Source: a virus (lineage: Duplodnaviria > Heunggongvirae > Uroviricota > Caudoviricetes). Taken from it: 19,525 nt of DNA. The stretch lies in the IMG/VR virus record IMGVR_UViG_2579778674_000015, positions 1 to 19,525 of that record. One strand, 5' to 3'. Position 1 is the first letter of the stretch, and each line of letters opens with the position of its first letter. The notes beneath the pieces were generated by a model. That model did no database searches. It had not been told where the DNA came from and worked only from the letters and a program-made list of their open reading frames with translations. A program made the position numbers and the translations under genes. Below, piece after piece: positions 1 through 19,525 of this stretch.

Positions 1-512
1 TTCACGCTCAATCTCACGACGAGTCATCAGGCCTTTCCATTGCTTACCGCCAGCGTATATCCAGCGACGTAGCTGGTCACATGCGCCTTTGATATCGCCC
101 TGGTTTATTTTGCGAAGAAGCGTCGATGTTCTGAAATTGCCAGCACCCACGTTGTAGACGAACGAGTAAAGAGCGCCGCGCGTTGTTTCCGGTATATCGA
201 CTTTGATGTACGGGTTAATTTGTCTGGCAACCGTGGCAAGGTCTTTATTCAGGAGGGCTTTGCATTCTGCTTCGGTATACGTTTTACCGAGCATGATGTC
301 TTTTCCGGTGTGTCCGTGACATACAGTCCATACGCCAACGATATCTTTGTATGGTATGTAGCTGACACCTTGCCAACGATATCTTTGTATGGTATGTAGC
401 TGACACCTTCCAGGCCATCGTCACCACTTGGGCCAGTGATTAACACTGATGCTATAGCAATTGCTCCGCCACCAATAGCAGCAGCAACTGCTTTTCGTAA
501 TGATGGAGGCAT
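1..512 (-). pseudogene. R: SAR-endolysin (phage 21 R-type lysozyme), frameshifted by a 38-bp tandem duplication; last ~7 codons lie beyond the window start
   Basis: Minus-strand ATG at 510-512 gives [47 protein letters not shown] (Gly/Ala-rich signal-anchor-release segment, E35 and D44 of the E-D-T triad), then the frame is lost. Conceptually deleting one 38-bp copy (334-371 = 372-409) restores ...[12 protein letters not shown]...[20 protein letters not shown] through to position 1. Start overlaps the holin stop (ATGA). Track ORF 249..512 is only the N-terminal fragment. Confidence 0.85.
334..409. repeat. Perfect 38-bp direct tandem duplication (2 copies) inside the endolysin gene
   Basis: gccaacgatatctttgtatggtatgtagctgacacctt occurs at 334-371 and again at 372-409 with no mismatch. 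38 is not a multiple of 3, so it shifts the frame after codon 47. Confidence 0.95.
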
Positions 513-1847: not shown

Positions 1848-1997
1848 GGATCAGTAAGCGTAACTCTGGTAGGCTCACTCTGCTTTTGCGCTAAAGCAGT
1901 GGGCCGTGGTTCGCTTGTGACCAGTAAGCATGAGCGAATGGCTGGCAGGTGCTACCAACACCCACCAGCCGCCCATTTTCACAGCAGGAAACCGCCA

Positions 1998-2225: not shown

Positions 2226-2323
2226 GACATACCAGTAACTCTTGTCTAAAAAGCCAGCAAGATAAAAAGTCAGTATTCACGACCACCAGCGTGTTTACTG
2301 TACTGCACCAAGTTTACAGGTAC

Positions 2324-2349
2324 AAAAAAACCCGCTCAGTGGCGGGTTC
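2324..2349 (-). terminator. Rho-independent terminator downstream of the Q-like gene (tR'-like)
   Basis: Minus-strand transcript reads aacccgc-cactga-gcgggtt followed by a 7-U tract (plus-strand A-run 2324-2330). Confidence 0.6.
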
Positions 2350-2394
2350 TTAAATCTTATCAACGGTAGACATACAAAGCCCATCGTTGTGAAA

Positions 2395-2423
2395 ATCTTA
2401 TCCATATTTTTTGAAAAACGCAA
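2395..2423 (-). promoter_or_regulatory. Candidate late promoter (pR'-like) just downstream of Q
   Basis: Minus strand: -35-like TTGCGT (plus 2418-2423), 17-nt spacer, -10-like TAAGAT (plus 2395-2400). Would give a ~60-nt RNA ending at the 2324-2349 terminator. The 10-mer GATAAGATTT is repeated in that leader (plus 2352-2361 and 2393-2402). Confidence 0.3.
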
Positions 2424-2454
2424 GCATCATGTCGTCATCTTCGGCGAAAACCAT

Positions 2455-3207: not shown

Positions 3208-3220
3208 GCTCGTTCTCCAC

Positions 3221-4216: not shown

Positions 4217-4217
4217 C

Positions 4218-5027
4218 TCAATGAACGGTATCGAGCAGCTTTAACAGCTCAGGGAATCGGGATTCGAAGAAATGCGGCTGCGTCTCGCGCGGATTTGCGG
4301 GACTGGTGATATTCTTGCCGAACATGCAGCCTTTCGCTGTCAGCGACCAGAATTTTTTGATGTTGTTAATCGCGGTACGGCTGTATCGTTCGCGCTGCTC
4401 GACGATCCCCAGCTTCACCATCTGGTGATATGCCTGATTAGCTGTCAGGCGGATACCATACTGCTTCAGCAGTGCACTCAGTGACAGCGTGGGGCGGCTT
4501 GAGCCATCAGGCGCGTCAGCAGGAGCATCAATGGCATAGCGTGGTGCCAGATTCGGTAAGCCAACAGCCTCCTGGAGTTTCTGACAGGCCCCAAGCACAG
4601 ATGAGTTAGACAGGTTTAACTCCCGGCGCATAAAGTCCAGCAGAATCACGCCAGCCTGCATCTTGTCAGCAGCCTGCCCGGATAATTTTTCCGGTGCGCT
4701 GGTTACCATATCGAAAGTACGGATCACCTTCAGATGGAATGACGGGCTGATCCACATTGCATAGGCATACACCAGTTCCTTGCAGACATAAGTTCCCCGT
4801 TCATTTCCCCCATGAATCACACTCACCGGGTCAACACCCAAATTCTGGGTGTTGGTCAATTCATGAACAAGTTCAACAGTTTGTTGGCTGGAAAGAAACT
4901 TTCCTGGCTCCTTGGTTCTGGCATTTGCACCAGATGCTACTGCTGCGCGATGCAGATCGTTCAGGCTGTAACGCCCATAAACATCACGACGAACTTCAAT
5001 ACCATCAATAACCATCAGATTATTCAT
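4218..5027 (-). CDS. KilA-N domain protein (Roi / antirepressor-like)
   Basis: 269-aa ORF with strong SD (AGGAG, 7-nt spacer). N-terminal ~110 aa (IDGIEVRRDVYGRYSLNDLHRAAV...YVCKELVYAYAMWISPSFHLKVIRTF) looks like a KilA-N/APSES DNA-binding fold. Confidence 0.5.
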   Translation of the reverse strand: MNNLMVIDGIEVRRDVYGRYSLNDLHRAAVASGANARTKEPGKFLSSQQTVELVHELTNTQNLGVDPVSVIHGGNERGTYVCKELVYAYAMWISPSFHLKVIRTFDMVTSAPEKLSGQAADKMQAGVILLDFMRRELNLSNSSVLGACQKLQEAVGLPNLAPRYAIDAPADAPDGSSRPTLSLSALLKQYGIRLTANQAYHQMVKLGIVEQRERYSRTAINNIKKFWSLTAKGCMFGKNITSPANPRETQPHFFESRFPELLKLLDTVH

Positions 5028-5046
5028 ACTTCGTTTCTCCTCTTAA

Positions 5047-5436
5047 TCAGGCGGCTGCACCCGCCGGTTTCTCATACTTACTGATAGTGATCTCGACCTT
5101 CCCTTTCGGGATAACCGGTCCCCACTCCACCAGCATTCTTTTCACCTGTCTGTCGTCTTCCCACACACCCGCGTGGGTCAACGCGTCAAACAGCGCCTTG
5201 TTATAGTTGTCCAGATCGCGGATCCGGTTATCCGGAGGAAACAACACGATCTCCACTGAAGCAGGTGCCGACGTTGGTTTTGGCAGACGACGTAACTGCT
5301 CAACTATTGCTGCGCACGCCGCGCTCTGAAATTTTCGCCCCGCCGCGCTTATCAGGCTCTTACCAGCAAATGCCCCTTTGTTGGGGTGTCGCCAGTACGT
5401 GTTCACGCTGGGCGGAAAAGGCAGGATCAGCTTCAT
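5047..5436 (-). CDS. rusA: RusA-family Holliday junction resolvase
   Basis: 129 aa, MKLILPFPPSVNTYWRH...RDLDNYNKALFDALTHAGVWEDDRQV matches the RusA signature. Start overlaps the upstream stop (ATGA). Confidence 0.8.
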   Translation of the reverse strand: MKLILPFPPSVNTYWRHPNKGAFAGKSLISAAGRKFQSAACAAIVEQLRRLPKPTSAPASVEIVLFPPDNRIRDLDNYNKALFDALTHAGVWEDDRQVKRMLVEWGPVIPKGKVEITISKYEKPAGAAA

Positions 5437-5759
5437 GCTTTCAGGCCTCTCTCATGTAACCAGTGGGTTGCACGCAGCCTTGCGTTTTCCTCACCGGCAA
5501 GCAGTGAGCGGATAATCCCGACCGCCTCGCTGTCGTCGTCCTTCACCGCGGTATGAAGCGTTATCCCCCGGGCCACGCCACGCTTTATCGTGATGACACC
5601 TTTTTTCTCCAGTGCGCGAAGATGCTCCACCGCTGCATTCACTGAACGGTATCCCAGCATGGTTGCCACCTCCTGATTGGTTGGCGGGAAGCCACGTTCT
5701 TTCTGGTAAGAAATCAGCATATCCAGCACCTGCTGCTGGCATTGAGTTAATGTCGTCAT
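5433..5759 (-). CDS. LexA-like DNA-binding domain protein lacking the S24 peptidase domain
   Basis: 108 aa; QQQVLDMLISYQKERGFPPTNQEVATMLGYRSVNAAVEHLRALEKKGVITIKRGVARGITL parallels the LexA N-terminal winged HTH. No Ser/Lys peptidase segment follows. ATGA-coupled to the upstream gene. Confidence 0.65.
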   Translation of the reverse strand: MTTLTQCQQQVLDMLISYQKERGFPPTNQEVATMLGYRSVNAAVEHLRALEKKGVITIKRGVARGITLHTAVKDDDSEAVGIIRSLLAGEENARLRATHWLHERGLKA

Positions 5760-6409
5760 GCCGCCATCTCCCTGACCAGTTTTTCCGCCTGCTGGCGAAC
5801 CTGCGCCAGAAAGGCCTCACCACATGCCTCAAGTTCATCGCGCCCGATGTAGCTGATTGCCGGTCCCTTCCAGGTCTTGTCGAAAACAGCAATAGCACCA
5901 GCGAAGAAAGCGCCTGTCGGCACCTGCTTCTCGTCCTTCGGGATAAACCAGGCTGGCAGTTCAAAACCAATACGCCCGCGAATAAAAGCAATATGGTCTG
6001 CATCTTCCGGCCACCAAACTTCGCTGGTGGCAGCTTTGATCAGGAAAACATAGCGCCCGCCTTTATCACGCATAGCACTGGCATGTTTCATGATGTAACG
6101 CATGCCGGTGATGTATTGCCCCTCATGCTGACTGGCGCGGCTGTACGGGGGATTACCAAAGGCAGCACCTTTAAGCTCCGCAAGACGTTCTGACCAGTCA
6201 TGCGCCAGCGCGTTGTCTTCCGCAGTGTAATAAGCGGCACATTTGGCGTTATCACCATCAGTAAACAGATCCAGAACAAACGGGCCAAACAGGGTGTTAA
6301 TTCCCCAGAAAATGTTGTCCGGCGTGCGCCACTGATCGCCCACTTCCTTCAGTTCATGGGCTGGTTTGTTCCGCAGCTCCACCAGCGCCTGGCAATATTT
6401 ATTACTCAT
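5756..6409 (-). CDS. Phage Dam-like N6-adenine DNA methyltransferase (NPPY motif)
   Basis: FGNPPYSR motif in a ~217-aa nin-region protein. Start taken as MSNKYCQ at 6409, overlapping the upstream stop (TAATG); the track's 6442 start is the alternative. Confidence 0.75.
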   Translation of the reverse strand: MSNKYCQALVELRNKPAHELKEVGDQWRTPDNIFWGINTLFGPFVLDLFTDGDNAKCAAYYTAEDNALAHDWSERLAELKGAAFGNPPYSRASQHEGQYITGMRYIMKHASAMRDKGGRYVFLIKAATSEVWWPEDADHIAFIRGRIGFELPAWFIPKDEKQVPTGAFFAGAIAVFDKTWKGPAISYIGRDELEACGEAFLAQVRQQAEKLVREMAA

Positions 6410-6897
6410 TAAGCCCCCACGTAATTCCCTGACAGATACCACTCTTCACCCGATGCAGCGCGCTTGCTGCTTTTCCGTAAGCACCGCTCACGATGCGCCA
6501 GAAAATTGTTTCGTTCTGGCTGGGAGTGGCTTTCACGGAATGCCGCCATCCACACCGTTGCAGCTCGACGGAATAAGCCCCTGGACTCCAGTTCTTCAGC
6601 CTGGCGGGTCAGGCACAAAATCACCCGGGGGTCGTTAGTGCCGACATAGAAATTGCGCACAGGTCTGGTTTCACGAACAGATTGTGGTTCCGGCTCCTGC
6701 GCTCTCTCAGTCAGGCGCGGGAAATGTCTGCGTGTATCTCCTTCACAACGGTGAGCCACACGCCCACTCTGACGTAACTTGCTTGCTGACTGCAGAACGC
6801 GCTGCCGTGAGTAACCAGCAAAAGCATCCGCAATGTCTCCGGAAGTACACCCCGGATGGGCTTCAATGAATTTCTGAACTTCATTCAAAAGACTCAT
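6409..6897 (-). CDS. Hypothetical protein with N-terminal winged-helix-like segment, basic C-terminus
   Basis: ORF immediately after the initiator-like gene. ATG at 6897 (MSLLNEVQKF...) preferred over the track's GTG at 6903. No family recognised. Confidence 0.45.
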   Translation of the reverse strand: MSLLNEVQKFIEAHPGCTSGDIADAFAGYSRQRVLQSASKLRQSGRVAHRCEGDTRRHFPRLTERAQEPEPQSVRETRPVRNFYVGTNDPRVILCLTRQAEELESRGLFRRAATVWMAAFRESHSQPERNNFLAHRERCLRKSSKRAASGEEWYLSGNYVGA

Positions 6898-6899
6898 GA

Positions 6900-7718
6900 T
6901 CACCCCCTGAATCCTGCCGGGATCTGGCTGTAGTCCACGTTGTCGTAACTGGATTTGAAGTACGGGTCCTCACGTCTGGCTGCAGATACCGCAGGAACTT
7001 CCCAGGATTCTTCGAAATGACGATCCGGACCAAAGAACGTGACAGCCTGTTTCACAAATTGTGTGCCGCTGTTACCCATCGCAGATACCCAGCCCGCATA
7101 GCGTTTCACACCTTCCAGCATGGTTTCGGGGTTTACCCCCTCATTCAAACGGGCTTTCCAGGCTTTGAAGGCTGCAGATTTTGAATTGCCACCAGCACGT
7201 TTGGGATATGCCAGCCATGCCTGCTCAAACTCCGGAGAATATTCCGGTCGGTTTGAACGAACTCGCACGGACTCATCAACTGATGCACCAACAGCTATTG
7301 GTTCATTGACTGGTTCTTTGACTGGTTCAAAAGAGTGACTGGTTCTGGGTGAATCTCCTGCACTACCCCCTGGTGCAACTCCTGCACTACCTGGTGAATT
7401 TGCTGCACCAGATAGTGAATTATTTGCACTACCACCTAGTGAATCTCCTGCACCATCCAGATGAAGGAGATAGATATTACTTGAGTTACCTTTTTCACCT
7501 TTCCGGGTGACTTTTTTTACCAGCCCGGACTCACAAAGGGCCGCAATATGATTCATCACAGAACGTTTGCTAATCTCGCACTGGTCAGCAATATGCTGGT
7601 AGCTGGGCCAGCACTCACCCTGATCGCTGGCATTATCAGCCAGCTTGATCAGAACCAGTTTTCGCAATGGATTACCCACTCGAATTTTCATCGCTTTAAC
7701 CATCAGCTCCATACTCAT
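6900..7718 (-). CDS. Replication initiator-like protein (N-terminal winged HTH, repetitive Gly/Ser/Ala/Pro linker, C-terminal domain)
   Basis: 272 aa; GGAGGTG SD. N-terminal LRKLVLIKLADNASDQGECWPSYQHIADQCEISKRSVMNHIAALCESGLVKK is an initiator-type wHTH. The linker is encoded by the DNA repeats at 7307-7458. Lambda O analogy is positional. Confidence 0.5.
   Translation of the reverse strand: MSMELMVKAMKIRVGNPLRKLVLIKLADNASDQGECWPSYQHIADQCEISKRSVMNHIAALCESGLVKKVTRKGEKGNSSNIYLLHLDGAGDSLGGSANNSLSGAANSPGSAGVAPGGSAGDSPRTSHSFEPVKEPVNEPIAVGASVDESVRVRSNRPEYSPEFEQAWLAYPKRAGGNSKSAAFKAWKARLNEGVNPETMLEGVKRYAGWVSAMGNSGTQFVKQAVTFFGPDRHFEESWEVPAVSAARREDPYFKSSYDNVDYSQIPAGFRG
7307..7458. repeat. Iteron-like direct repeats inside the initiator gene (candidate origin)
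   Basis: TGACTGGTTC at 7307, 7319 and 7336; then five 21-24-bp units starting 7348, 7372, 7393, 7414, 7438 (ggtgaatctcctgcacta / ggtgcaactcctgcacta / ggtgaatttgctgcacca / agtgaattatttgcacta / agtgaatctcctgcacca). Confidence 0.5.
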
Positions 7719-7951
7719 GCTGCACCTCCGAGATGCTTCATGTTTTTTCCGGAGCGAAAGGTTATAAGCGGCATACTGACGCGGTAATTACGGCCCAGCG
7801 GTTCACAAATCACCTTCTGACATTCACGGTCAACCAGGCTAACACGTAGAACATGCCCTGCAGGCGTGGTGTACCACTGCCCAACTGTAGGAATTGATGT
7901 TTTTTTACGCTGAAATAAACGGTAAATGTTGAGGATCAACGGATTAAGCAT
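7715..7951 (-). CDS. Hypothetical protein (78 aa)
   Basis: GGAGG SD 8 nt before the ATG; stop overlaps the downstream start (ATGA). No recognisable motif. Confidence 0.45.
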   Translation of the reverse strand: MLNPLILNIYRLFQRKKTSIPTVGQWYTTPAGHVLRVSLVDRECQKVICEPLGRNYRVSMPLITFRSGKNMKHLGGAA

Positions 7952-8780
7952 GACGATGCCCTCCGCTGATATTCAGGAGACGGTGAATATGAAAATTAGC
8001 CTTATCCGCCAGACGAATACGTTCAGCCTGCAAGTTAATAAGGGTTTCTACCAGAACCTGATGCGCCTGCGGATCCGAAAGAGTTACCTTGCGCAGAGCA
8101 CGTAGTGCAGTTGTTACATAACTGAGTTTATGTAAGTCTTCATCATTCAGACGAGTGAGGGCTGGGACAGTAGCCATGATGGCAGCCTCCTTGATCGGTG
8201 AAATACTTCCACCACCGGAAACGCCAATTTCGCTGGTGGTGAACTGAACGGGGTTGGCGTAACCGGTGATCAAGGAAACCGGCGCATCTTTCGATGCCCC
8301 CGCCCAGCCCACCATAACTTTGATGTGAGCAAATGCGGACGATAAAAAAGACGCTGGCGCGTCATATATCGCCTTGATCAATTCCAGGACGCCAATCCCG
8401 GCACCCGCTTTATAAGGTGCCTGAACAGTGTAACGTCCCGGAATGGCAGAATCAATGTGCTGGTGGTCCTTCACACTCAACAAAATCACGCCTGAATTTC
8501 CACAAAGGACTAAAGCACTCATGCGGGTAGTCTTTGCGAAGATAGATAACGCGCTGTGTTTCTGGTTCCCAACGAATAACATGGACATAAAGCCCTCTTC
8601 CGTCACGAAACCAGCGGTTAAGTTCCCGCACAACTCGCCCCCCACAGTCAGGTAAAGTTCTCTGTGGTTACTTACAGCCAGGTGATTTGGTAATCTGCAT
8701 TCATGCCGTAACAACAGGTGTTCAGCGACACTGACCACCAGCTGTTGCGACAAACGGTTATTTGCCGTTAAACTGTTCAT
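7944..8780 (-). CDS. Hypothetical protein (278 aa) in the early-right operon
   Basis: Long ORF with GGAG SD, ATGA-coupled to the upstream gene. No Walker or other catalytic motif recognised. Confidence 0.45.
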   Translation of the reverse strand: MNSLTANNRLSQQLVVSVAEHLLLRHECRLPNHLAVSNHRELYLTVGGELCGNLTAGFVTEEGFMSMLFVGNQKHSALSIFAKTTRMSALVLCGNSGVILLSVKDHQHIDSAIPGRYTVQAPYKAGAGIGVLELIKAIYDAPASFLSSAFAHIKVMVGWAGASKDAPVSLITGYANPVQFTTSEIGVSGGGSISPIKEAAIMATVPALTRLNDEDLHKLSYVTTALRALRKVTLSDPQAHQVLVETLINLQAERIRLADKANFHIHRLLNISGGHRHA

Positions 8781-9340
8781 GCGTTAGTTTCTCCACAGAC
8801 ACAAAACGCCACGACGCCCGGAGCTGCACACTCGCGGGCGTCACTCTTTTCTGGAGCGCAAAAGATTTTGTAGACCAGTGCTGCATGCTCTTGGAGCTTC
8901 GAAATTGACAGATACAACTCATCATTAATTGCTGTCTGCTCGTGTGGCTCCACGACCCCATCTTCGATTGCCGAACGAATCTGCTTTGAGTAATTCCCGA
9001 TCTGTTCGATGACTTCCAGCAGGCGCTGGTTTATATCGGCGTTCTCTACTTCCTCAATTTCAGGAAGCGATACGAACACCCCACCAGCAGACTGTGCGAC
9101 AGCATCCGCAATGTAGTGAGTGCCAGCCGCGCGCTGTAAAACCATTGCCCATCCCAGCGGGAAAATCTGATCGCCATCGGCACGAAGGCGGTTAAATAAT
9201 GCGTTCTCTGTTACATCCAGCCAGTCAGCTGCTTCAGCGTAACCACCCGGCAACGCTGCGATAGTTTTTCTGACAGCTTTCACGTACCACTCAGGCTGTT
9301 TTTCTACTTTCCAGTGATACTTACCCACGGTTAGCCTCAT
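8777..9340 (-). CDS. Hypothetical regulatory protein in the CII position
   Basis: 187-aa ORF immediately after the Cro-like gene; assignment is by position only. Confidence 0.4.
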   Translation of the reverse strand: MRLTVGKYHWKVEKQPEWYVKAVRKTIAALPGGYAEAADWLDVTENALFNRLRADGDQIFPLGWAMVLQRAAGTHYIADAVAQSAGGVFVSLPEIEEVENADINQRLLEVIEQIGNYSKQIRSAIEDGVVEPHEQTAINDELYLSISKLQEHAALVYKIFCAPEKSDARECAAPGVVAFCVCGETNA

Positions 9341-9371
9341 CGTTCTGTGGTTAAAAATTGAAGGTGTTCTG

Positions 9372-9572
9372 TTAATCTTTCGGATAGATATCCGGTCTTA
9401 AGTCAGATTTCGTAATTGCACCTGACGTGCATTGCTCAAGTTTTTTCGCCAGCACAAAACTGGCTTTTTTATAACCATTGAAAACCAGCCGTAAGTAGCC
9501 AGGTGTTGAGCCAACTTTTCCGGCCAACTCGCCCTGCTGTTCTTTGGTTAAAGAGTCCCAATACGCTTTCAT
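9372..9572 (-). CDS. Cro-like HTH regulator
   Basis: 66-aa protein MKAYWDSLTKEQQGELAGKVGSTPGYLRLVFNGYKKASFVLAKKLEQCTSGAITKSDLRPDIYPKD, strong SD GGAGGT 9 nt upstream, divergent from the repressor. Track ORF 9372..9875 is an extension overlapping the repressor start. Confidence 0.6.
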   Translation of the reverse strand: MKAYWDSLTKEQQGELAGKVGSTPGYLRLVFNGYKKASFVLAKKLEQCTSGAITKSDLRPDIYPKD

Positions 9573-9662
9573 ACAATATGTACCTCCGATATACATATTA
9601 CATGATTGAAATGAACCTTCAAGATACTTGTACCTTATCGGTACAAAGGTTTTAATTTCGTT
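9573..9662. promoter_or_regulatory. Divergent immunity-region promoters and operators (pR-like / pRM-like)
   Basis: Inverted repeat TTGTACC-n5-GGTACAA at 9628-9646; ATATGTA-n9-TACATAT at 9576-9598 enclosing the cro SD. Minus-strand -35 TTGAAG (9617-9622) and -10 TAATAT (9595-9600). Plus-strand -10-like TTTAAT (9651-9656) places a start near the cI ATG with no SD, suggesting a leaderless cI mRNA. Confidence 0.45.
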
Positions 9663-10337
9663 ATGAAAACAATCCATGACATCCGGCGGTCTAACGCCAG
9701 AAAACTGAGAGATGGTGTTGGCGGGAATTCTTCCTTTGCCACCATGATTGATCGCGAGCCAACCCAGACCAGCAGGTTTATGGGAGATGGTGCTACTAAA
9801 AATATCGGTGACAGCATGGCGCGGCACATCGAAAAATGTTTCGACCTGCCTGTCGGATGGCTTGATCAAGAACACCAGACCACGAACATCACAAAAAAAC
9901 CTGATGTTTCAATCACTAACAAACAAATAACGTTAGTCCCTGTCATATCATGGGTACAGGCCGGAGCATGGAAAGAAGTTGGCTATTCTGAGGTTGATTT
10001 GAGCACAGCAGAAACTTACCCCTGCCCTGTACCCTGTGGCGAAATGACTTATATCTTGCGGGTGATTGGTGATTCAATGATTGATGAGTACCGCCCTGGA
10101 GACATGATTTTTGTTGATCCCGAAGTCCCTGCCTGCCACGGTGACGACGTTATTGCATTGATGCACGATACAGGCGAAACCACCTTCAAGCGATTGATAG
10201 AAGATGGAACACAGCGTTATCTCAAAGCATTAAACCCAAACTGGCCTGAGCCTTACATTAAGATTAACGGTAATTGCTCTATAATTGGTACAGTGATTTT
10301 CTCGGGAAAACCAAGAAGATACACAATAAAGGCCTAA
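9663..10337 (+). CDS. CI/C2-type phage repressor (N-terminal HTH, C-terminal S24 LexA-like autopeptidase)
   Basis: 224 aa; C-terminal ...LVPVISWVQAGAWKE...LRVIGDSMIDEYRPGDMIFVDPEV...TFKRL...INGNCSIIGTVIF with Ser in GDSM and Lys in TFKRL; N-terminal XRE-type HTH. Confidence 0.85.
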   Translation: MKTIHDIRRSNARKLRDGVGGNSSFATMIDREPTQTSRFMGDGATKNIGDSMARHIEKCFDLPVGWLDQEHQTTNITKKPDVSITNKQITLVPVISWVQAGAWKEVGYSEVDLSTAETYPCPVPCGEMTYILRVIGDSMIDEYRPGDMIFVDPEVPACHGDDVIALMHDTGETTFKRLIEDGTQRYLKALNPNWPEPYIKINGNCSIIGTVIFSGKPRRYTIKA

Positions 10338-10349
10338 TCAATATTTATG

Positions 10350-10372
10350 AACCTGCTTCGGCAGGTTTTTTT
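10350..10372 (+). terminator. Rho-independent terminator after the repressor gene
   Basis: aacctgc-UUCG-gcaggtt followed by a 7-T tract, starting 13 nt after the cI stop. Confidence 0.7.
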
Positions 10373-10376
10373 ATAC

Positions 10377-10409
10377 TTGACAATGTACCCATGAGATACA
10401 TAATGTATC
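10377..10409 (+). promoter_or_regulatory. pL-like promoter with overlapping palindromic operator
   Basis: Consensus -35 TTGACA (10377-10382), 16-nt spacer, -10 CATAAT (10399-10404). Palindrome GATACAT-a-ATGTATC (10395-10409) overlaps the -10; ATGTACC (10384-10390) repeats the pR-region half-site. Confidence 0.5.
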
Positions 10410-10822
10410 CAAAAGAAACATGAGGCAGGCAAGATTCAAACAAAATTTGGTTGTAACACGGCGTATGGCACATGCGTCGTTAGCGGTCTGGGGACGTTAA
10501 AGGGGACAATCCACTTCTTGCTCGGGCAAACAAACCAGGTAGCCGGAATGTGCAAGTCAATGATGATGCTGATAAGACGCCTAACCAGCGTGGCGATCCG
10601 GTTTGACGCCTGGGAAGAGACCAGGGTGCAACGATGAGGGCATTTATAGAGCCGCGACAAAGTGTGGTGCCGTAACTGGCTAAGTGCTCTCAGCGTTGTG
10701 GTAATCCGCGAAATGGCGCGGCGGTAAGTATGGCGGGGTTACTCTTTCCCCGTTGAGGACACCGGATTGTCAGGTTGACCATACGCCTGAGTGACAACCC
10801 CACCACAACAGCCACTGCTTTG

Positions 10823-10868
10823 GCGGTACCAGTTTGTACACTTGCTTCCGGCTGGTACCGCTCTTTTT
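10823..10868 (+). terminator. Rho-independent terminator within the early-left leader
   Basis: Perfect 10-bp stem GCGGTACCAG / CTGGTACCGC (10823-10832, 10852-10861), 19-nt loop, then TCTTTTT. Confidence 0.55.
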
Positions 10869-10957
10869 ACAAAATAGAGAAGAGCATCACCGGACGACGG
10901 GCTCATAACCCAATCCATCCGGGCGGCTGCCACCGCAGGTGTTCTTCTCTGTTTTGT
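10869..10957 (+). other. Long-range 17-bp RNA helix (two G-U wobbles) enclosing 55 nt, upstream of the first early-left gene
   Basis: ACAAAATAGAGAAGAGC (10869-10885) pairs with GTTCTTCTCTGTTTTGT (10941-10957). The two non-Watson-Crick positions are G-U in the plus-strand transcript but C-A mismatches on the other strand. Confidence 0.35.
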
Positions 10958-11005
10958 GGAGAAACCAACCGACCTTGCAGGGTCGATATGATGAGGAGCA
11001 GCAAA

Positions 11006-11368
11006 ATGGCTAGCGAACGCAGTACTGATGTGCAGGCATTTATCGGGGAGCTGGACGGCGGCGTATTTGAAACCAAAATCGGCGCAGTTCTCAGTGAAGT
11101 CGCTTCCGGTGTGATGAACACGAAAACCAAAGGTAAGGTCTCACTCAACCTGGAAATCGAACCATTTGATGAGAACCGTGTGAAAATCAAACACAAACTC
11201 TCATATGTTCGCCCGACTAACCGCGGGAAAATTTCCGAAGAAGACACCACCGAAACGCCGATGTATGTCAATCGCGGTGGTCGCCTGACTATTCTGCAGG
11301 AAGACCAGGGACAATTACTGACTCTTGCCGGTGAACCTGACGGAAAACTACGCGCAGCAGGTCATTAA
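11006..11368 (+). CDS. Hypothetical early-left protein
   Basis: GAGGAG SD 7 nt before ATG at 11006 (MASERSTDVQAF...). The track ORF starting at 10775 crosses the terminator and helix, so the upstream extension is unlikely. Confidence 0.55.
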   Translation: MASERSTDVQAFIGELDGGVFETKIGAVLSEVASGVMNTKTKGKVSLNLEIEPFDENRVKIKHKLSYVRPTNRGKISEEDTTETPMYVNRGGRLTILQEDQGQLLTLAGEPDGKLRAAGH

Positions 11369-11433
11369 TATCGTTCTTAATTAACTGATTATTTATCTCA
11401 TCACTGAATATCTTTATATAGTGAGGACTTATT

Positions 11434-12258
11434 ATGTCTCAGAACTTAGACGCAACCACAATTAATCAAATCCATGCCCTTATTTCTGCTCAGGGTGTTA
11501 ATGAAATTATCAGTAATATTGGTGCCGATGCTGTGGCATTGCCTGAGAATTTCCGCATTCATGATCTGGAAAAATTTAATTTAAATCGCTTCCGTTTCCG
11601 TGGTGCGCTTTCCACTGCCAGCATCGATGACTTTACCCGTTATTCTAAAGATCTTGCAGATGAAGGCACCCGCTGCTTTATCGATGCTGATAATATGCGT
11701 GCCGTCAGTGTACTTAACCTGGGTACTATTGATGAACCAGGTCACGCAGATAACACCGCCACTCTCAAACTGAAAAAGACAGCACCGTTCTCTGCCCTGT
11801 TGTCTGTTAACGGCGAGCGTAACTCCCAGAAGTCACTGGCAGAATGGATTGAAGACTGGGCCGACTACCTTGTGGGCTTTGATGCTAATGGTGACGCTAT
11901 TCAGGCAACAAAAGCGGCTGCGGCAGTCCGTAAAATCACGATTGAAGCAAACCAGACCGCTGATTTTGAAGATAATGACTTCAGCGGCAAACGCTCCCTG
12001 ATGGAGTCTGTCGAAGCGAAGACCAAAGACATTATGCCAGTGGCATTTGAATTTAAATGCGTTCCGTTTGAAGGTCTGAAAGAACGTCCGTTTAAATTAC
12101 GCCTCAGCATTATCACTGGCGATCGTCCTGTACTGGTTCTGCGCATTATTCAGCTGGAGGCGGTGCAGGAAGAAATGGCTAACGAATTTCGTGATCTGCT
12201 TGTTGAGAAATTCAAGGACAGCAAAGTAGAAACCTTTATTGGTACTTTCACCGCCTGA
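11434..12258 (+). CDS. DUF2303-like protein (resembles E. coli CPS-53/KplE1 YfdQ)
   Basis: 274-aa ORF with SD GTGAGGA. Size and gene context recall the KplE1 yfdP-yfdT block; this is from memory, not a search. Confidence 0.55.
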
Positions 12259-12385
12259 TTTCATTACTGCAAATGCCCCTGCGGGGGCATTTATGGAAAC
12301 GTAATTTACTCAATAATCGCCGGATGGTGAGGGATTCTTTTTACCAGAATTCAGCGCGGTGCAGCGCATATACGTGGAGAACAAA

Positions 12386-12922
12386 ATGTCATTTATCAAA
12401 ACTTTTTCTGGGAAGCATTTTTATTATGACAGGATAAATAAAGACGACATCGATATTAACGATATCGCGGTTTCCCTTTCAAATATCTGTCGCTTTGCCG
12501 GTCATCTTTCGCACTTCTACAGCGTCGCCCAACATGCGGTTCTTTGCAGCCAGCTGGTGCCGCAGGAATTTGCTTTTGAAGCGTTAATGCATGATGCAAC
12601 AGAAGCGTATTGCCAGGACATTCCCGCACCACTGAAACGCCTTCTTCCTGACTATAAACGGATGGAAGAAAAAATAGACGCCGTAATCCGTGAGAAATAC
12701 GGGTTACCCCCGGTTATGAGTACACCCGTGAAATATGCCGATCTCATCATGCTGGCAACCGAACGCCGCGATCTCGGGCTTGATGATGGCTCTTTCTGGC
12801 CTGTACTGGAAGGCATCCCGGCAACAGAGATGTTCAACGTGATTCCACTGGCACCGGGCCATGCCTACGGGATGTTTATGGAACGTTTTAACGATTTATC
12901 GGAGTTACGCAAATGCGCATGA
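12386..12922 (+). CDS. HD-domain phosphohydrolase (YfdR-like 5'-deoxynucleotidase family)
   Basis: HFYSVAQH and HDATEA metal-binding motifs; GGAG SD 7 nt before ATG at 12386 (track starts at a GTG at 12359). Confidence 0.7.
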   Translation: MSFIKTFSGKHFYYDRINKDDIDINDIAVSLSNICRFAGHLSHFYSVAQHAVLCSQLVPQEFAFEALMHDATEAYCQDIPAPLKRLLPDYKRMEEKIDAVIREKYGLPPVMSTPVKYADLIMLATERRDLGLDDGSFWPVLEGIPATEMFNVIPLAPGHAYGMFMERFNDLSELRKCA

Positions 12923-13275
12923 ATGTTTTCGAAATGGAAGGGTTTCTTCGCGGGAAATGTGTACCGCGAGATCTGAAAGTGAACGAAACAAATGCTGAGT
13001 ACCTGGTACGTAAATTCGACGCGCTTGAAGCTAAATGTGCGGCACTGGAAAACAAAATAATACCAGTGTCAACTGAACTGCCACCAGCAAATGAAAGTGT
13101 TCTGTTATTTGATGCTAATGGAGAAGGCTGGCTGATTGGCTGGCGTTCTCTCTGGTACACCTGGGGACAAAAAGAAACCGGAGAATGGCAGTGGACATTT
13201 CAGGTCGGGGACCTTGAAAACTTCAATATCACTCACTGGGCAGTAATGCCCAAAGCGCCGGAGGCTGGAGCATAA
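12913..13275 (+). CDS. Hypothetical protein (DUF551-like Trp-rich C-terminus)
   Basis: 120 aa, GGAG SD, start overlaps the upstream stop. C-terminal GWLIGWRSLWYTWGQKETGEWQW...THWAVMP. Confidence 0.55.
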   Translation: MRMNVFEMEGFLRGKCVPRDLKVNETNAEYLVRKFDALEAKCAALENKIIPVSTELPPANESVLLFDANGEGWLIGWRSLWYTWGQKETGEWQWTFQVGDLENFNITHWAVMPKAPEAGA

Positions 13276-13895
13276 TGACCACATTTACCAATAAAGAACT
13301 GATTAAAGAAATCAAAGAACGAATCAGCAGCCTAGAGGTTCGAGACGATATTGAGCGCCGTGCTTATGAAATTGCTCTGGCATCGCTGGAAGAGGAGCCG
13401 GTGGCATGGCTGCATTCAGACAATGGCTTAGGTATTCCGGCAATAACCAGGAGCAAAAACATTGCTGACAGTTGGTTATCAATGGGCTGGTATGTTCAGC
13501 CGCTATATATAGCCAAGCCAGTACTGGTGGTGCCAGATGCTCGTCCGTCTTTAAATAATGGCATAGTCGGTTTTGATGAAGGCTGGAACGCCTGCCGCGC
13601 CACCATGCTTCATGGTGCCAAACCTGTAAGCCAGACTTACAAGTTGAACAAGCTGTCGGGCAACTCTCCGGTAACTCAGGATGGTTGGATAAGCTGTAGT
13701 GAGCGAATGCCGAACGATAAACAGTATGTTTGGTGTTGGGGTAAGTCTTACGGCTGGACTGAGTGCGATACCTTCGAAGGGTATTACGATTGGTCGAGAA
13801 ACAAATGGTGGGCAGTTACTGACGATGGGGAAGAACCGGCATCGAAAGTAACCCACTGGATGCCGCTACCGGAGCCACCGCAGGAGGTGAAGTAA
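13275..13895 (+). CDS. DUF551-like protein
   Basis: 206 aa; start overlaps the upstream stop (TAATG). C-terminal WISCSERMPNDKQYVWCWG...WWAVTDDGEEPASKVTHWMPLPEPP. Confidence 0.55.
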   Translation: MTTFTNKELIKEIKERISSLEVRDDIERRAYEIALASLEEEPVAWLHSDNGLGIPAITRSKNIADSWLSMGWYVQPLYIAKPVLVVPDARPSLNNGIVGFDEGWNACRATMLHGAKPVSQTYKLNKLSGNSPVTQDGWISCSERMPNDKQYVWCWGKSYGWTECDTFEGYYDWSRNKWWAVTDDGEEPASKVTHWMPLPEPPQEVK

Positions 13896-14089
13896 TGAAC
13901 AACTTAATGACAACTAAACAAGTCGCCGACTTCTGTGGCGTTTCAGTATCGACCGTTCTTCGCTGGAACAGCGTAAACAGGAGAACTGGCCAGAAATACA
14001 GGCCTGACTTTCCAGATCCTGATATTAAATCCTGCCCAAATAAATGGGCATCACGCAAGATATACAGGTTTGCTGGAGTTATTGAGTGA
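13895..14089 (+). CDS. Excisionase / AlpA-family HTH protein (putative Xis)
   Basis: 64 aa with strong SD AGGAGGTGA. TTKQVADFCGVSVSTVLRW is a MerR/Xis-type HTH. Last gene of the plus-strand block. Confidence 0.5.
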   Translation: MNNLMTTKQVADFCGVSVSTVLRWNSVNRRTGQKYRPDFPDPDIKSCPNKWASRKIYRFAGVIE

Positions 14090-14124
14090 TGGGTATTAGC
14101 TCATATCAGAACTAATACCCATCA
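14087..14124. repeat. Perfect 13-bp inverted repeat (hairpin, 12-nt loop) at the xis-like stop codon
   Basis: TGATGGGTATTAG (14087-14099) and CTAATACCCATCA (14112-14124). No flanking T/A tract on either strand. A second weaker inverted repeat GACACAG...CTGTGTC follows. Confidence 0.6.
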
Positions 14125-14291
14125 ATGACACAGAGCCAACTACCCACCCTGTGTCAGGGGCTAACTTTTAACACCATAATTCACCGCTAGATAAAAACTG
14201 TATTGCATTGCACGAGCGGCGCAGCATTATCAGTTAGAGTGTCTTTACCTTGTTAGGCTCCACAGTTCGCACTGTCCAACGCCTGTCACTT

Positions 14292-17200
14292 TCACACGCT
14301 GCGCCTTCGAGAATATTCATTTAATCGCTGATAACGAACATCTTGCTCCAGTTGTGGAGCAGCTTGAACAATTTGAAGCAAGCATTGCCCCAACTCTCGA
14401 GGCCCCCAGTGTTGTTCGGCAATCACGGCATTCAGCAGGGATAGAGCGTCCGCAGGATATCGGCTGCAAATATCTGATTCTAGCAAAAGGCGAACGTCGT
14501 AGCTAAGGTGTTCGAGCGGTTGCAGCCAGTCCTGCACCACTGCCAAAGCCGCCGGAAATTCACCTCGGGCAGCAATCACCATACGAGTCAACGATTCGGA
14601 TATGCGTGGGGTGGCCAAGTTGCGGGACTTTGGCCAAACCTGTTGCCAAAATGGCTGGACACGATTTTTCCAATACTCCTCGCGCTGATCGCCCGCACCT
14701 TCAAGTGCCTGGTATAACGCCTGCGCGGCTACCTCCAGACCTTCTTGTGGAAGAGCACTAATTGCCGTTCGGAACTCCTCCACGGTATATCCCTCGGTAG
14801 GGCCCAGAGCTGCATAAGTCAGGAAAATAGCGAATTGCTGCCGGTGCTCGCCAAGATCAGAATAGTGATTGGCGCTCTCCAAAAAATCTGACTTGAAAGC
14901 TATCAGCAACGGTTCATACAGGCGTGGCGACCAGAGGAAGCCTTCCCACACAGCTTTTGCTTCGACGGGATTACTCCAAGCAAACAAGGGCAATAGATAC
15001 TGTTCGGTCCAAGGTCGATCTACGCGAAAAAATGCGATCAGCCGCGACCCCAGCAACACCCGACCATGGCGGAATAGCTCTATCTGTACATTACACAATT
15101 TGGTGAAAAGTGTTTTCAATTCAACAGGAAGCAAATCATTGTCATTCGGGTTCTGTTTGAACCATAGGGTGATCAGTGATTGCGTGACATGCCCAATGGG
15201 ATGATTGATCGCCGTAGAAACAGGATCATAGGTCTCAATTCCGTTTCGAATGGTGCTAGACTCTGGGCTTGTTTCTATCATCAGAACCCGACGACAAAGG
15301 GCCAGTAGAATCTCCTCGTGGCAGAGGATGGTCTTCGAAGCCTCCTCCATCCACCAAGTGACAGCGTGGGAAATCTCCTGAAGTACTGCGTCAGGCATGT
15401 CAAGCACCAACGGTGCGGCGTACCGCCACGAACGCAAAATCATCCCTGGTTCAGCCCAAGTCTGCAGAGCTTCACGCCACCGACCAACAGGCCACACATC
15501 ATCTTGTGATAGTTTACGTAACGCATACAGACTGTGAAAAAAGCGCGTACGGCAAACATCACTCCAAGTGTCCTCATAGAAAGGCAGTCTTTCTGGCATA
15601 GGCTTTGCGAGCCATTGCACTAATTCCTGCCACTTACGGGGCGCAATGTCGACATCTATACTCTCCTCGAAGCCTGGATCACCGGTTCCGCTCATCCAGT
15701 GAGAGAATTCATCACGCTCGTTGGTTGCCAGTTGCCATTTTGGGTATGCTGTGGATATTTCCGTCAAACGTGTAGCCGCAGACTCTCCCAAAACAAGGCC
15801 CGCTCCCCTGAGCTTCGCTAGACACAACCAGACGGAATGAGCCACCAAATAATGCCACCTGTCTGCTTCCAAATTATCCTCGTACATCTCGCGCGGAGGC
15901 CCTGCCAAGATAGCAGTTTCCAGACGCTCTTGTGCAATTCCTGTCAGATGTCGTCCCTGCAAAACAAACAGTCTGAATACCTCTCGCCGAGTATCCGTGG
16001 CCCACAACCACCATGAACCGTCCTCTAACAACCAATTAACCCACCGCTCAGGTGGTATGCAGTTGTCTTGGCTTGCGGCAAACAGTGCCAGACGTTTGAA
16101 GGTGGGATATGGCAACTCAAACCAATTCTGAGCAATGCGCGAGGCCTGATCGCTGTCTTTGGCTCGAACGGCTAACCATGAATCCCGAAGTAATTCAATC
16201 AGGCTCACCCAATCGCGGAACCCCCGGTTCTGCCAGTGCGGAGTGATGGACGGCAAATCCCAATGCGAGCGGTCGTGACGATCGTCGGACTCTCCCAACT
16301 CCCGCAACAAGTCCAGTGCATCACGCAACAACTGCTGAAAATCTTCCAACAGGTATGGCAAGGACGATTTCCATGACTCGTCAGCAAGGTCGAACAGGGT
16401 TGAACGTACGTAATCAGCAGTCAGCACCAGCTCCCAATCCACCAATTGCTTGATTCGCAAGGGTTCATCAGTGCTGCTCGAATCGTCTTCACTATAGCGA
16501 AACGGCCGCCTCAACATAACCTTGGGAGAAAGCAACCCGCGTAACTCCAAGCGCAATGTAGTCGTCAAGCCTTCATTCTTTAAGCGGTTTTGCCAACGAT
16601 ACAAATCCAGGTTCTGCAATGGCGATTTCACACGACCACTAAGCAGAAGCCGCCATAAAGTAGACATAGGTGGACCAGGAATAGCCAGGGGGGAATGCAA
16701 GAGAATTTCATCTAACTCAGAAGTCTTACGCTCCCGCATCAGTGCTGCTAAGCGATCTAGTTCGCTCTCAATCAGAAACATCCAACGGTCGTGTATTTGT
16801 CCGCCGCGTTCAGCAATCCATATGATCAACCTAGGGTCGCCCAGATAACGAACTAGCCAACGGGCTATATGGGACATTACGTCATCCCATTTGCTAGCAC
16901 TGACACATCCAGAAACCAGCGACATCTGCGGGGCCAGCTCATAGGGCGCAGGACGCTGAACCAGACTGAATCGGAGTTTCGGGTCAATTTCGACATGCGG
17001 AGATACACAAAAGCGTGGCAGATCGCTGTATTTAAATCGTTCGTCCGAGAAAGCTTTCAATAACCAATCCAGCGGCGGTGCAGGATTGAGTTCCGCAAAG
17101 CGTTTTGCTGGTAAACCTGATTTATCTGACAAGGCCCACAACATCCGACCAACGAAATCGTCCTGACGAGTGCTGTCCTGCGGGCGGGCCAGAGCATGTT

Positions 17201-18119
17201 TGACGACTATAGCCTTTTTGCCCTGTATACCATCTCGATAAGTATCTGCCCAAGCGTGCAACGTTTGATGCAGCACTGAATGATCAGTGGAGCCCGCCGG
17301 TACGGTGTAAAGGATAGGAGTGACCCCTTTGGCCTCCCACTCGATGGCTTTCCGGTGCTCCTGCCCCGGCTCACACTCCCCCAGTGCCCATACTTGTGGT
17401 GTGACTTCACCGAGCCTCCGATCTGCTGCAAGCGCATCCATCATGTAGCGCAGTACCGGGTCGTTGATGCTGTAGCCAACGAAGCAGACCACATAGTTAC
17501 GAAATAACTCACTCACAAAGCGAGCTGCCCAACGCTCAGTGAGATAAGCCAAGCCAAAGTCACCGCTGGTAACAACCAGACGATTCAGGGCAGTATCATC
17601 CGCCTTTTCCGGTAACAGCCCATGCAGGTATACAAGTCCATCCCAGCGGCTGTTTTTTGGAATTGGCAGCATCGGCGCTACATAGGCCTGAAAAGCCTGG
17701 CCTGTACGTTTAGCTGCCACATGAAAGAGACGGTCAAAGTTGGTAGTGACCAATCGAAGGGCACCCTCGCGGCTACGGGCTAAACGTAACAGCGCCGCCT
17801 GAGTATCAATAGCGCCCCTACGACGGAGCTTTGGCTTAAGGGCTTTTTCCAACGCGCGTCGGACGGCTATACGCTGCCCTGGTAAGCGCCGTTCCAGCAA
17901 ATCTAATGTGCCGTCAAATTGCCCACGCTCGAAAACCTCACGCTCAATTTCTGAAAGTGTTGTTCCGTTCCTCTGGTAAATTAGTTCTACCAACCCTTTG
18001 AAACCAGGTAAACCAGCAGGGTAGGAAATGCCTGCTCCACAGAAGAACACAACGCGCCCTTCCTCGTGCGCCTGCAAAAGCTCATCAGGAATATCAGGGC
18101 CGTTGGTAATGAATTGCAT
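14292..18119 (-). CDS. Large SIR2-domain protein (1275 aa): N-terminal sirtuin-like NADase domain plus ~1000-aa unassigned Trp-rich C-terminal region; candidate single-gene anti-phage defence
   Basis: Uninterrupted 3.8-kb ORF, strong SD AGGAGG 7 nt before ATG at 18119. N-terminus has VVFFCGAGISYPAGLPGF (glycine-rich NAD-binding loop), LVTTNFDRL (N127) and LVYLHGLL (H166), matching the Asn/His arrangement of SIR2 defence NADases. The remainder shows no motif I recognise. Confidence 0.8.
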   Translation of the reverse strand: MQFITNGPDIPDELLQAHEEGRVVFFCGAGISYPAGLPGFKGLVELIYQRNGTTLSEIEREVFERGQFDGTLDLLERRLPGQRIAVRRALEKALKPKLRRRGAIDTQAALLRLARSREGALRLVTTNFDRLFHVAAKRTGQAFQAYVAPMLPIPKNSRWDGLVYLHGLLPEKADDTALNRLVVTSGDFGLAYLTERWAARFVSELFRNYVVCFVGYSINDPVLRYMMDALAADRRLGEVTPQVWALGECEPGQEHRKAIEWEAKGVTPILYTVPAGSTDHSVLHQTLHAWADTYRDGIQGKKAIVVKHALARPQDSTRQDDFVGRMLWALSDKSGLPAKRFAELNPAPPLDWLLKAFSDERFKYSDLPRFCVSPHVEIDPKLRFSLVQRPAPYELAPQMSLVSGCVSASKWDDVMSHIARWLVRYLGDPRLIIWIAERGGQIHDRWMFLIESELDRLAALMRERKTSELDEILLHSPLAIPGPPMSTLWRLLLSGRVKSPLQNLDLYRWQNRLKNEGLTTTLRLELRGLLSPKVMLRRPFRYSEDDSSSTDEPLRIKQLVDWELVLTADYVRSTLFDLADESWKSSLPYLLEDFQQLLRDALDLLRELGESDDRHDRSHWDLPSITPHWQNRGFRDWVSLIELLRDSWLAVRAKDSDQASRIAQNWFELPYPTFKRLALFAASQDNCIPPERWVNWLLEDGSWWLWATDTRREVFRLFVLQGRHLTGIAQERLETAILAGPPREMYEDNLEADRWHYLVAHSVWLCLAKLRGAGLVLGESAATRLTEISTAYPKWQLATNERDEFSHWMSGTGDPGFEESIDVDIAPRKWQELVQWLAKPMPERLPFYEDTWSDVCRTRFFHSLYALRKLSQDDVWPVGRWREALQTWAEPGMILRSWRYAAPLVLDMPDAVLQEISHAVTWWMEEASKTILCHEEILLALCRRVLMIETSPESSTIRNGIETYDPVSTAINHPIGHVTQSLITLWFKQNPNDNDLLPVELKTLFTKLCNVQIELFRHGRVLLGSRLIAFFRVDRPWTEQYLLPLFAWSNPVEAKAVWEGFLWSPRLYEPLLIAFKSDFLESANHYSDLGEHRQQFAIFLTYAALGPTEGYTVEEFRTAISALPQEGLEVAAQALYQALEGAGDQREEYWKNRVQPFWQQVWPKSRNLATPRISESLTRMVIAARGEFPAALAVVQDWLQPLEHLSYDVRLLLESDICSRYPADALSLLNAVIAEQHWGPRELGQCLLQIVQAAPQLEQDVRYQRLNEYSRRRSV

Positions 18120-18169
18120 TCCTTTTCCTCCTATCCAATGTGCACGTTCATTCGAGTAAATGAAGGCAA

Positions 18170-18215
18170 GGGGTTACATCTTATTATACCGACCGTGCAA
18201 ATCCGGCTTCCTAGC
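18170..18215 (-). promoter_or_regulatory. Candidate promoter for the SIR2 gene in the int-SIR2 intergenic region
   Basis: Perfect -10 TATAAT on the minus strand (plus 18183-18188), ~60 nt upstream of the ATG; only a poor -35 (TTGCAC-like, wrongly spaced). Confidence 0.25.
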
Positions 18216-18301
18216 AAGCTACTTTACTTGCCAACTCATAATGTCCGAACTCCGAACAAAGCGGACTGCTAGATTTGATTGCGTTCTAGCTACGCAAAAT
18301 A

Positions 18302-19525
18302 TCATTTCGAGCCTGAACGAGTACAAGTAACAATCGATTCAACTCTCTCCCACCATGCCTGGTAGGCTTTACGCTGTTCTTCTAGATAATCACTCTTGTC
18401 ATAAACTTGCCATACACCTGGCAGTTTATGACCGAGCATTATTTCAGCAATATGAGGCGCAGTAAGATCAGAAAAGTTTGTTCGTGCTGTTCGTCTCAAA
18501 TCATGAAGAGACCAGTGAGGAAATTGATACCCCAAACGCCGCCATGCGTACTGCATTAAATTGTAAGGCAGCGACTGCAATGATGTCCGACCAACTGGTT
18601 CCCTGCTTCCTTCCTTAGTAAAAAGCATATCGGAACCGTTGTTCATAGAGATAACGTATTTTATAAGCTCTTCAACCGGTTCAATAATGGGCCGCTTTAG
18701 CGGTTCGCCTGTTATATCCCCTGTCTTATGTCGTTCTGGTGGTACAGTCCATATTTTATTAATGAAATCAAAATCGTCCACCTTGGCAGTAATTAGCTCT
18801 GAACTACGGCAACCAAAATGCAGCAATAGTTTAATGAAGGCCCGGTATTTAGGAACCATTCGAGAACCATCGATCGCAGCATAAAGGATTTTAATTTCAT
18901 CATGTGTCAGAAACCGTTTCTTCTGACCTTTACGGATATCCATATCTTTACCCGTGATATCCGACAGCGGGCGAGTTTCAATGAGCTTTCTCTTATACGC
19001 CCAGACATGGGCCTGCTTTGCGTTAATTAGCAATCGGTCTGCTATTGCTGGAGTCTTAGTGCTAAGAGGCTCCAGGACTTCTAACCAATCATGCAATGTA
19101 GCTGCATCGTGAGGGATATTCCCGATTTTAGAGAACAGGTGCAGCTCAAACGAGCGGAGTATCTGTTCAGAACCTTTTTTATTTTTTACACAATATGCTT
19201 CATACCAAGCACGGATCACAGATTCTACCGTCATGGCTTCAGTAGCTTTACGTTTTTCTGCCAGCTTGACCAATCGTGGATTGCGGTTTGACTCGAGTTC
19301 ACCACGAAGACGGATAACTTCTTCTCTGGCCTCTTTTAGTCCAGTTGCCGGGTAAGTTCCGATATCAAGACGCTCACCTTTCCCCGCCCACTGATAACGA
19401 TATTGGAACACTACGCGACCTTTCGGTGATACTCTAACAGACAGACCATCACGATCGGATTTAACCAAAACCTTATCACGTTCCTTTCCAACGACTGAAC
19501 GCAACCACGCATCAGACAGCGCCAT
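18302..19525 (-). CDS. int: Tyrosine integrase (P4-type, N-terminal arm-binding domain plus catalytic domain)
   Basis: 407 aa; start codon is the last three bases of the window (MALSDAWLRS...). Typical N-terminus (GLSVRVSPKGRVVFQYRYQWAGKGERLDIGTYP), HDLRRTARTN box and C-terminal Tyr region (WQVYDKSDY). Confidence 0.9.
   Translation of the reverse strand: MALSDAWLRSVVGKERDKVLVKSDRDGLSVRVSPKGRVVFQYRYQWAGKGERLDIGTYPATGLKEAREEVIRLRGELESNRNPRLVKLAEKRKATEAMTVESVIRAWYEAYCVKNKKGSEQILRSFELHLFSKIGNIPHDAATLHDWLEVLEPLSTKTPAIADRLLINAKQAHVWAYKRKLIETRPLSDITGKDMDIRKGQKKRFLTHDEIKILYAAIDGSRMVPKYRAFIKLLLHFGCRSSELITAKVDDFDFINKIWTVPPERHKTGDITGEPLKRPIIEPVEELIKYVISMNNGSDMLFTKEGSREPVGRTSLQSLPYNLMQYAWRRLGYQFPHWSLHDLRRTARTNFSDLTAPHIAEIMLGHKLPGVWQVYDKSDYLEEQRKAYQAWWERVESIVTCTRSGSK

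Follow-up and report, generated by a model that had tools for sequence, protein, structure and literature searches.

We analyzed a 19,525-nucleotide stretch of a caudoviricete genome (IMG/VR record IMGVR_UViG_2579778674_000015, positions 1 to 19,525; here, the window), with attention to a long gene near its right end that we identify as dsr1. A preliminary description, made from the letters alone, had taken this gene for a candidate single-gene antiphage system that depletes NAD+, in which an N-terminal SIR2 domain is followed by a Trp-rich C-terminal region that it left unassigned. The open reading frame (ORF) of 1275 amino acids at 14292-18119 was borne out by translation and lies on the minus strand, no strand having been given before. 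The gene and its parts are as follows.

14292..18119, minus strand: dsr1 coding sequence, 1275 amino acids plus stop, ATG start, intact (ORF list and translation).
17280..18119, minus strand: N-terminal SIR2 NADase effector domain, residues ca. 1 to 280 (Pfam SIR2_2 and KomC alignment).
17739..17741, minus strand: codon of N127, the conserved SIR2 Asn of the TTNFD motif (position check, invariance among homologs, and the TTNYD motif of KomC).
17622..17624, minus strand: codon of H166, the conserved SIR2 His of the YLHG motif (position check, invariance among homologs, and H146 of KomC).
14295..17279, minus strand: Trp-rich, all-helical C-terminal region, residues 281 to 1275, the Dsr1 sensor (homologs, AlphaFold2 [AF2] model, and literature).

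The comparison with PADLOC that the preliminary description had proposed returned a full-length match to the Dsr1 model PDLC02183 (2731 bits, profile positions 1 to 1275 of 1275). The NCBIfam equivalog NF041818, "anti-phage defense-associated sirtuin Dsr1," was matched at 2056 bits (cutoff, 1400), residues 1 to 1271 aligning with profile positions 1 to 1263 of 1263. Compared with the dsr1 product of NZ_OX030701.1 (WP_029488749.1), the window protein was identical at 1275/1275 positions, and a search for residue-level differences between the two found none across the 1275 amino acids. Since WP_029488749.1 is the accession of EcDsr1 in the work of Lee et al. (Nature 2026; PMC13581612), the window, judged by this identity, encodes the prototype Escherichia coli Dsr1 itself and not just a relative. 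The DNA of the window gene is likewise 100% identical to dsr1 of the EcDsr1 prototype. The exact protein sequence is present in NCBI under the name Dsr1 (111 contigs), and the Dsr1 of enterotoxigenic E. coli (ETEC) H10407 differs by a single residue change, L14F. Of 5426 complete E. coli genomes, 76 contained a DNA match to dsr1, in every case on the chromosome, and 67 of these carry it at ≥99% identity, with dsr1 as the RefSeq name. The name Dsr1 is said in other papers to come from Gao et al. in 2020.

Every defining feature of the Dsr1 family that we were able to test was present. The gene is not new: it is named, modeled in both PADLOC and NCBIfam, and experimentally studied as the exact allele. 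Thus, of the earlier proposal, the functional part holds (a DSR-class SIR2 NADase that works as a single gene and has a sensor at its C terminus), while the novelty that it left open falls away, since the protein is identical to the known EcDsr1 and has full-length, confident homology to a characterized family (NF041818, PADLOC, and WP_029488749.1). We are highly confident that the gene is dsr1, a single-gene antiphage system carried as cargo by a lambdoid prophage, and that it is the exact E. coli prototype allele (WP_029488749.1); the mechanism proposed for it is that of a capsid-triggered SIR2 NADase.

Several published observations bear on the function of Dsr1. EcDsr1 protects against a few Drexlerviridae phages, and in the ZL19 screen of 73 genes the major capsid protein was the sole activator of EcDsr1-dependent cell death; disruption of the NADase domain abolished both toxicity and defense (PMC13581612, Extended Data Fig. 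3g,j). The same authors described the EcDsr1 C terminus as a tetratricopeptide repeat (TPR) sensor homologous to that of the STAND protein Avs7, a homology derived from iterated PSI-BLAST and AlphaFold3 models, in which the sensor is bilobed and sharply bent in both proteins (Lee et al., PMC13581612). Garb et al. found that a DSR1 (a homolog or an unspecified allele) lowers NAD+ during phi29 infection and that the depletion is transient, without collapse of the culture. Srikant et al. showed that the native dsr1 of ECOR17 blocks T4 lacking nrdC.5, that MG1655 is protected by an ECOR17 dsr1 clone that includes 300 bp upstream of the gene, and that T4 nrdC.5 inhibits an E. coli Dsr1 (PMC9391042). 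DSR1 is also overcome by NARP1 and NARP3, phage pathways that rebuild NAD+. A 2026 paper still rates DSR1 as poorly characterized, and no solved Dsr1 structure was present in the PDB sequence set that we searched.

The gene sits next to an integrase, as had been described, and the region upstream of it contains the following features.

18302..19525, minus strand: prophage tyrosine integrase (int), part of the context and not of the defense system (Pfam Phage_integrase, Arm-DNA-bind_3, and Phage_int_M; RefSeq).
18183..18188, minus strand: perfect TATAAT hexamer between int and dsr1, possibly a -10 element (seen in the sequence by eye).
18127..18132, minus strand: AGGAGG ribosome-binding site, 7 nucleotides 5' of the dsr1 ATG (read off the sequence).

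The integrase lies 182 bp upstream of dsr1 in the same orientation, and the host gene yjjG follows directly past it in the RefSeq annotation. The whole window is 99.9 to 100% identical to the yjjG-adjacent lambdoid prophage of several E. coli strains. Read from its left end, it starts with the lysis genes rrrD and essD, followed by Q-like antitermination, RusA, Dam-like methyltransferase, and O-like replication genes, then by cII-like, Cro-like, and cI-like (ymfK) regulators and the early-left genes yfdP, yfdQ, and yfdR, with dsr1 and int coming last. dsr1 is a prophage cargo gene that lies between int and the early-left genes. Its G+C content (ca. 52%, versus ca. 44% for the integrase and the right end of the window) is typical of a prophage cargo gene, and this step in composition fits an acquisition separate from that of the prophage backbone. 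As in a single-gene system, dsr1 is flanked by the integrase and, at its other end, by variable remnants of early genes. The neighbor on the remnant side consists of DUF551 fragments in the window and is yfdR directly in FDAARGOS_1287, where a related prophage has a 94%-identical dsr1 allele at the corresponding place. Ten neighboring proteins were compared with PADLOC, and no other defense component was found among them; the only strong matches were two methyltransferases.

Some copies of dsr1 in other genomes are damaged. The gene is interrupted by IS1203 in CUVET18-789 (NZ_CP115312.1), OkiPb01713 (NZ_AP042682.1) retains only its first 58%, and GDSC2227PM (NZ_CP135595.1) carries a 15% fragment at 86% identity. 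The gene was also found, unannotated and at 99.9% identity, near the left end of L004 (LC727881.1, 2049-5876), a 92.9-kb record deposited as a "Stx2c-converting phage," and the PHROG family that corresponds to dsr1 (15208) is labeled "unknown function." Phage-oriented resources lag behind the annotation of Dsr1.

A consensus promoter and terminator scan found no complete canonical sigma-70 -35/-10 pair in the int-dsr1 spacer, and the overall number of sites that it reported was not above the level of shuffled sequence. The isolated TATAAT hexamer there is possibly part of a promoter of dsr1's own. The missing promoter pair, together with the decay of the prophage (a 38-bp duplication frameshifts its lysozyme gene) and the IS1203-broken or truncated copies in other strains, would suit a dsr1 that is a silent or decaying passenger of a defective prophage and provides no defense in its native setting. 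We consider this very unlikely: the ORF is intact and preceded by a strong ribosome-binding site, the identical allele defends when expressed (PMC13581612), an identity of ≥99% has been kept in 67 genomes, and the ECOR17 gene defends at its native chromosomal locus as well as when cloned behind 300 bp of its own upstream sequence (PMC9391042).

To characterize the C-terminal region, residues 281 to 1275 were used as a query, which retrieved at least 2650 proteins. Among the 120 matches listed, identity was ≥75%, nearly the whole query was covered, and almost all proteins carried SIR2. An exhaustive search gave 2804 representatives of 50%-identity clusters at an E value of ≤0.001, and most of the best 150 of them had the Dsr1 layout. 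Eight of these 150 with odd lengths or offsets were scanned, and SIR2 was present in all of them; no sensor relative with another N-terminal effector was found in this set. Because the eight unusual representatives all carry SIR2, the published modularity of the sensor was not reproduced among the best 150. Trp had been estimated by eye at 45 to 50 residues, and the count was 48 (3.76%), with 44 of them within residues 281 to 1275 (4.4%). This richness is a family trait, with means over 45 diverse homologs of 3.7% in the sensor versus 1.2% in SIR2. Of the 44 Trp positions in the sensor, 25 keep Trp in ≥80% of these homologs, and ca. 35 do not vary in closer relatives.

An AF2 model of residues 281 to 1275, built with 40 homologs as input and leaving the first ca. 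130 residues unmodeled, was entirely alpha-helical (mean predicted local distance difference test score [pLDDT], 65.6; predicted template modeling score [pTM], 0.41), in agreement with the helical appearance noted from the sequence. A PDB sequence search with the sensor alone gave no match at E values of up to 10, and a profile built from 45 diverse homologs matched SIR2 domains only among PDB entries and nothing over the sensor. Fold searches with the model returned only generic alpha-solenoids, in libraries that run to April 2026 and among which the SeAvs7 entries may be missing. The structural comparison with DSR proteins that had been proposed for residues ca. 300 to 1275 upheld the helical character and gave no specific likeness to DSR2. 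These results confirm that the sensor is a helical repeat without detectable similarity to the DSR2 C-terminal region.

Whether this region was of the DSR1 type or a new sensor had been left undecided, and the 100% identity to EcDsr1 speaks for the former: on this ground, the C-terminal region is the known Dsr1-type sensor. The statement that no motif could be placed in the C-terminal ca. 1000 residues was fair as regards Pfam, in which SIR2_2 alone was matched. This Pfam blank over residues 270 to 1275, and the absence of a solved structure matching the sensor by sequence, are what one would expect of a DSR-like protein whose C-terminal sensor is new and different from the DSR1 type. Such a protein is extremely improbable here, as the curated Dsr1 models span the C-terminal region end to end, the region is 100% identical to that of the prototype, and it is common to homologs at 75 to 82% identity across Proteobacteria, many of them named Dsr1. 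A new sensor was rejected on the full-length PADLOC and NF041818 matches and the identity to WP_029488749.1.

The N-terminal motifs were found where they had been placed, with VVFFCGAGIS starting at residue 23, TTNFD at 125 (N127), and YLHG at 164 (H166). Pfam SIR2_2 (PF13289) covers residues 123 to 269 (E = 9e-23), and the Pfam scan found no family in the ca. 1000 residues after it. The SIR2 NADase KomC aligns over residues 12 to 245 of Dsr1; in this alignment, N127 falls on the TTNYD motif of KomC, and H166 pairs with KomC H146, the residue replaced by Asn in the PDB variant KomC(H146N) and by Ala in its counterpart. Both residues are invariant in the 45 homologs (36 to 56% identity), which supports the assignment of the SIR2 Asn and His and is the opposite of what their absence would have given. 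By alignment and conservation, N127 and H166 are thus confirmed as the conserved SIR2 catalytic residues. The family profile matched ThsA and DSR2 in the SIR2 region only. It also gave weak matches to SIRT2, SIRT3, and Hst2, limited to the Rossmann GAGIS segment (positions 13 to 64), but a sirtuin with a housekeeping or regulatory role, acting as a protein deacylase and not as an immune NADase, is hardly credible, given that the best domain match is to SIR2_2 (PF13289) and to defense NADases such as KomC and ThsA, that the gene is located in a prophage and present in only 1.4% of E. coli genomes, and that there is experimental evidence for defense in the literature (Garb et al.; PMC13581612; PMC9391042).

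Together with the published data, the domain layout suggests a mechanism in which the C-terminal helical-repeat sensor (residues ca. 281 to 1275) would bind newly made phage major capsid protein, and the capsid-bound sensor would turn on the N-terminal SIR2 domain, with N127/H166 as the catalytic residues. The active domain would then hydrolyze NAD+, and phage replication would be halted. We infer that the capsid protein is bound directly by the Dsr1 sensor and that a conformational or oligomeric step links this binding to NADase activation. When Avs7 binds the capsid protein, its two sensor lobes are clamped onto each other and autoinhibition is lifted; by analogy, a similar clamping of lobes may take place in Dsr1, which has no NTPase module. 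As a tentative idea, with the balance somewhat against it, a capsid sensor of the Avs7 type could in Dsr1 act on the SIR2 NADase with no STAND NTPase switch in between, by an activation route not described so far. A host factor may take part in this route (EF-Tu, for instance, as is the case for Avs7), or a second trigger from T4-like phages, since T4 needs nrdC.5 to escape a Dsr1.

Other features of the window are described here as observations on the prophage. At its left end, rrrD (minus strand, 1..512) contains a perfect 38-bp tandem duplication at 334-409, consisting of two copies of GCCAACGATATCTTTGTATGGTATGTAGCTGACACCTT, which is not found in NZ_OX030701.1. The duplication causes a frameshift that cuts the protein to 87 amino acids, versus 165 in the intact form. 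Because the lysozyme is frameshifted and truncated in this way, the prophage copy in the window can probably not lyse its host, as far as can be read from the gene. The ORF at 13275-13895 (plus strand) is intact, encodes 206 amino acids, and has a complete DUF551 domain (residues 137 to 203); RefSeq/PGAP calls two pseudogene fragments here in otherwise near-identical genomes, a call that may be an annotation artifact and not real decay.

Short tandem repeats with periods of 12, 21, and 24 (up to 4.6 copies) are clustered at 7299-7453, inside an O-like gene (6900-7718, minus strand) that matches PHROG families of O-like replication initiation proteins. They resemble the iteron-type origin within the lambda O gene. 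Two DNA methyltransferases are encoded on the minus strand, one of the N6_N4_Mtase family near the lysis genes (795-1847) and one Dam-like phage N-6-adenine methyltransferase (5756-6442). No restriction partner for either was found in the prophage, and both are probably cargo with an anti-restriction or regulatory role. A 20-bp unit is present in two copies at 80% identity (10382-10421) downstream of the cI-like repressor gene, within a 668-bp unannotated gap between the end of ymfK (10337) and the start of yfdP (ca. 11006). The listed ORF at 10775-11368 is yfdP extended upstream with a TTG start.

The discovery value of the locus is low, as the gene is in RefSeq, PADLOC, and NCBIfam and its exact allele has already been tested. 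Its main use is as a calibration, in that a SIR2 defense protein and its catalytic residues were recognized from raw sequence alone, although such a reading could not reveal that the family had been cataloged before. The interesting biology of Dsr1 lies outside the window and concerns the switch from capsid sensing to NADase activity, the structure, and the inhibition by nrdC.5.

In order to put the window protein into perspective, we compared it with known systems. With respect to EcDsr1, there is no difference in the protein; the DNA is the same and so is the prophage site, next to int and yjjG. DSR2 of Bacillus subtilis (PDB 8WY8 and related entries) likewise needs one gene only, whose product has a SIR2 NADase at the N terminus, senses a phage structural protein through a large helical C-terminal part, and acts by depleting NAD+. 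This shared plan (N-terminal SIR2, large helical C terminus) and the weak match of the family profile to DSR2 chains (E, ca. 1e-3) could be taken to indicate a member of the DSR2 family, that is, a sensor of tail tube protein with a DSR2-type C-terminal domain inhibited by DSAD1. We give this next to no chance: the similarity is limited to SIR2 (profile positions 17 to 148), no relationship between the sensors was detectable by profile or fold searches, Dsr1 was examined for DSR2-type middle and C-terminal domains and they were not found, and DSR2 is triggered by the tail tube protein, Dsr1 by the major capsid protein.

Avs7 (SeAvs7, a STAND NTPase; PDB 9N00, 9N01, and 9YIX) is described by Lee et al. 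as having a bilobed TPR sensor that is homologous to that of Dsr1 and targets the HK97-fold major capsid protein (PMC13581612). Unlike Avs7, Dsr1 has neither a STAND NTPase nor a Cap4 nuclease, its effector being SIR2. No NTPase family that would indicate a STAND module (NBD-HD1-WHD) appeared in the Pfam or PADLOC results, and the literature also describes Dsr1 as free of it (PMC13581612). In our own searches, the Dsr1 sensor had no PDB sequence or profile match that would point to Avs7, and the fold searches to April 2026 led to generic solenoids; the homology between the two sensors is claimed in the paper of Lee et al. and is cited here as theirs.

Lastly, ThsA (type I Thoeris) and KomC (Kongming) have a SIR2_2-type NADase with the same conserved Asn and His as Dsr1. 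The PADLOC matches of Dsr1 to ThsA were weak (E = 3e-5) and limited to residues 13 to 230; the protein did not qualify as a ThsA, and no TIR gene was found among the annotated neighbors of dsr1. KomC is a stand-alone SIR2 protein of 264 amino acids that belongs to a multigene system, whereas Dsr1 has no conserved adjoining partner gene. ThsA requires ThsB and binds its signal with a SLOG/STALD domain, while Dsr1 contains its own protein sensor of ca. 1000 amino acids.

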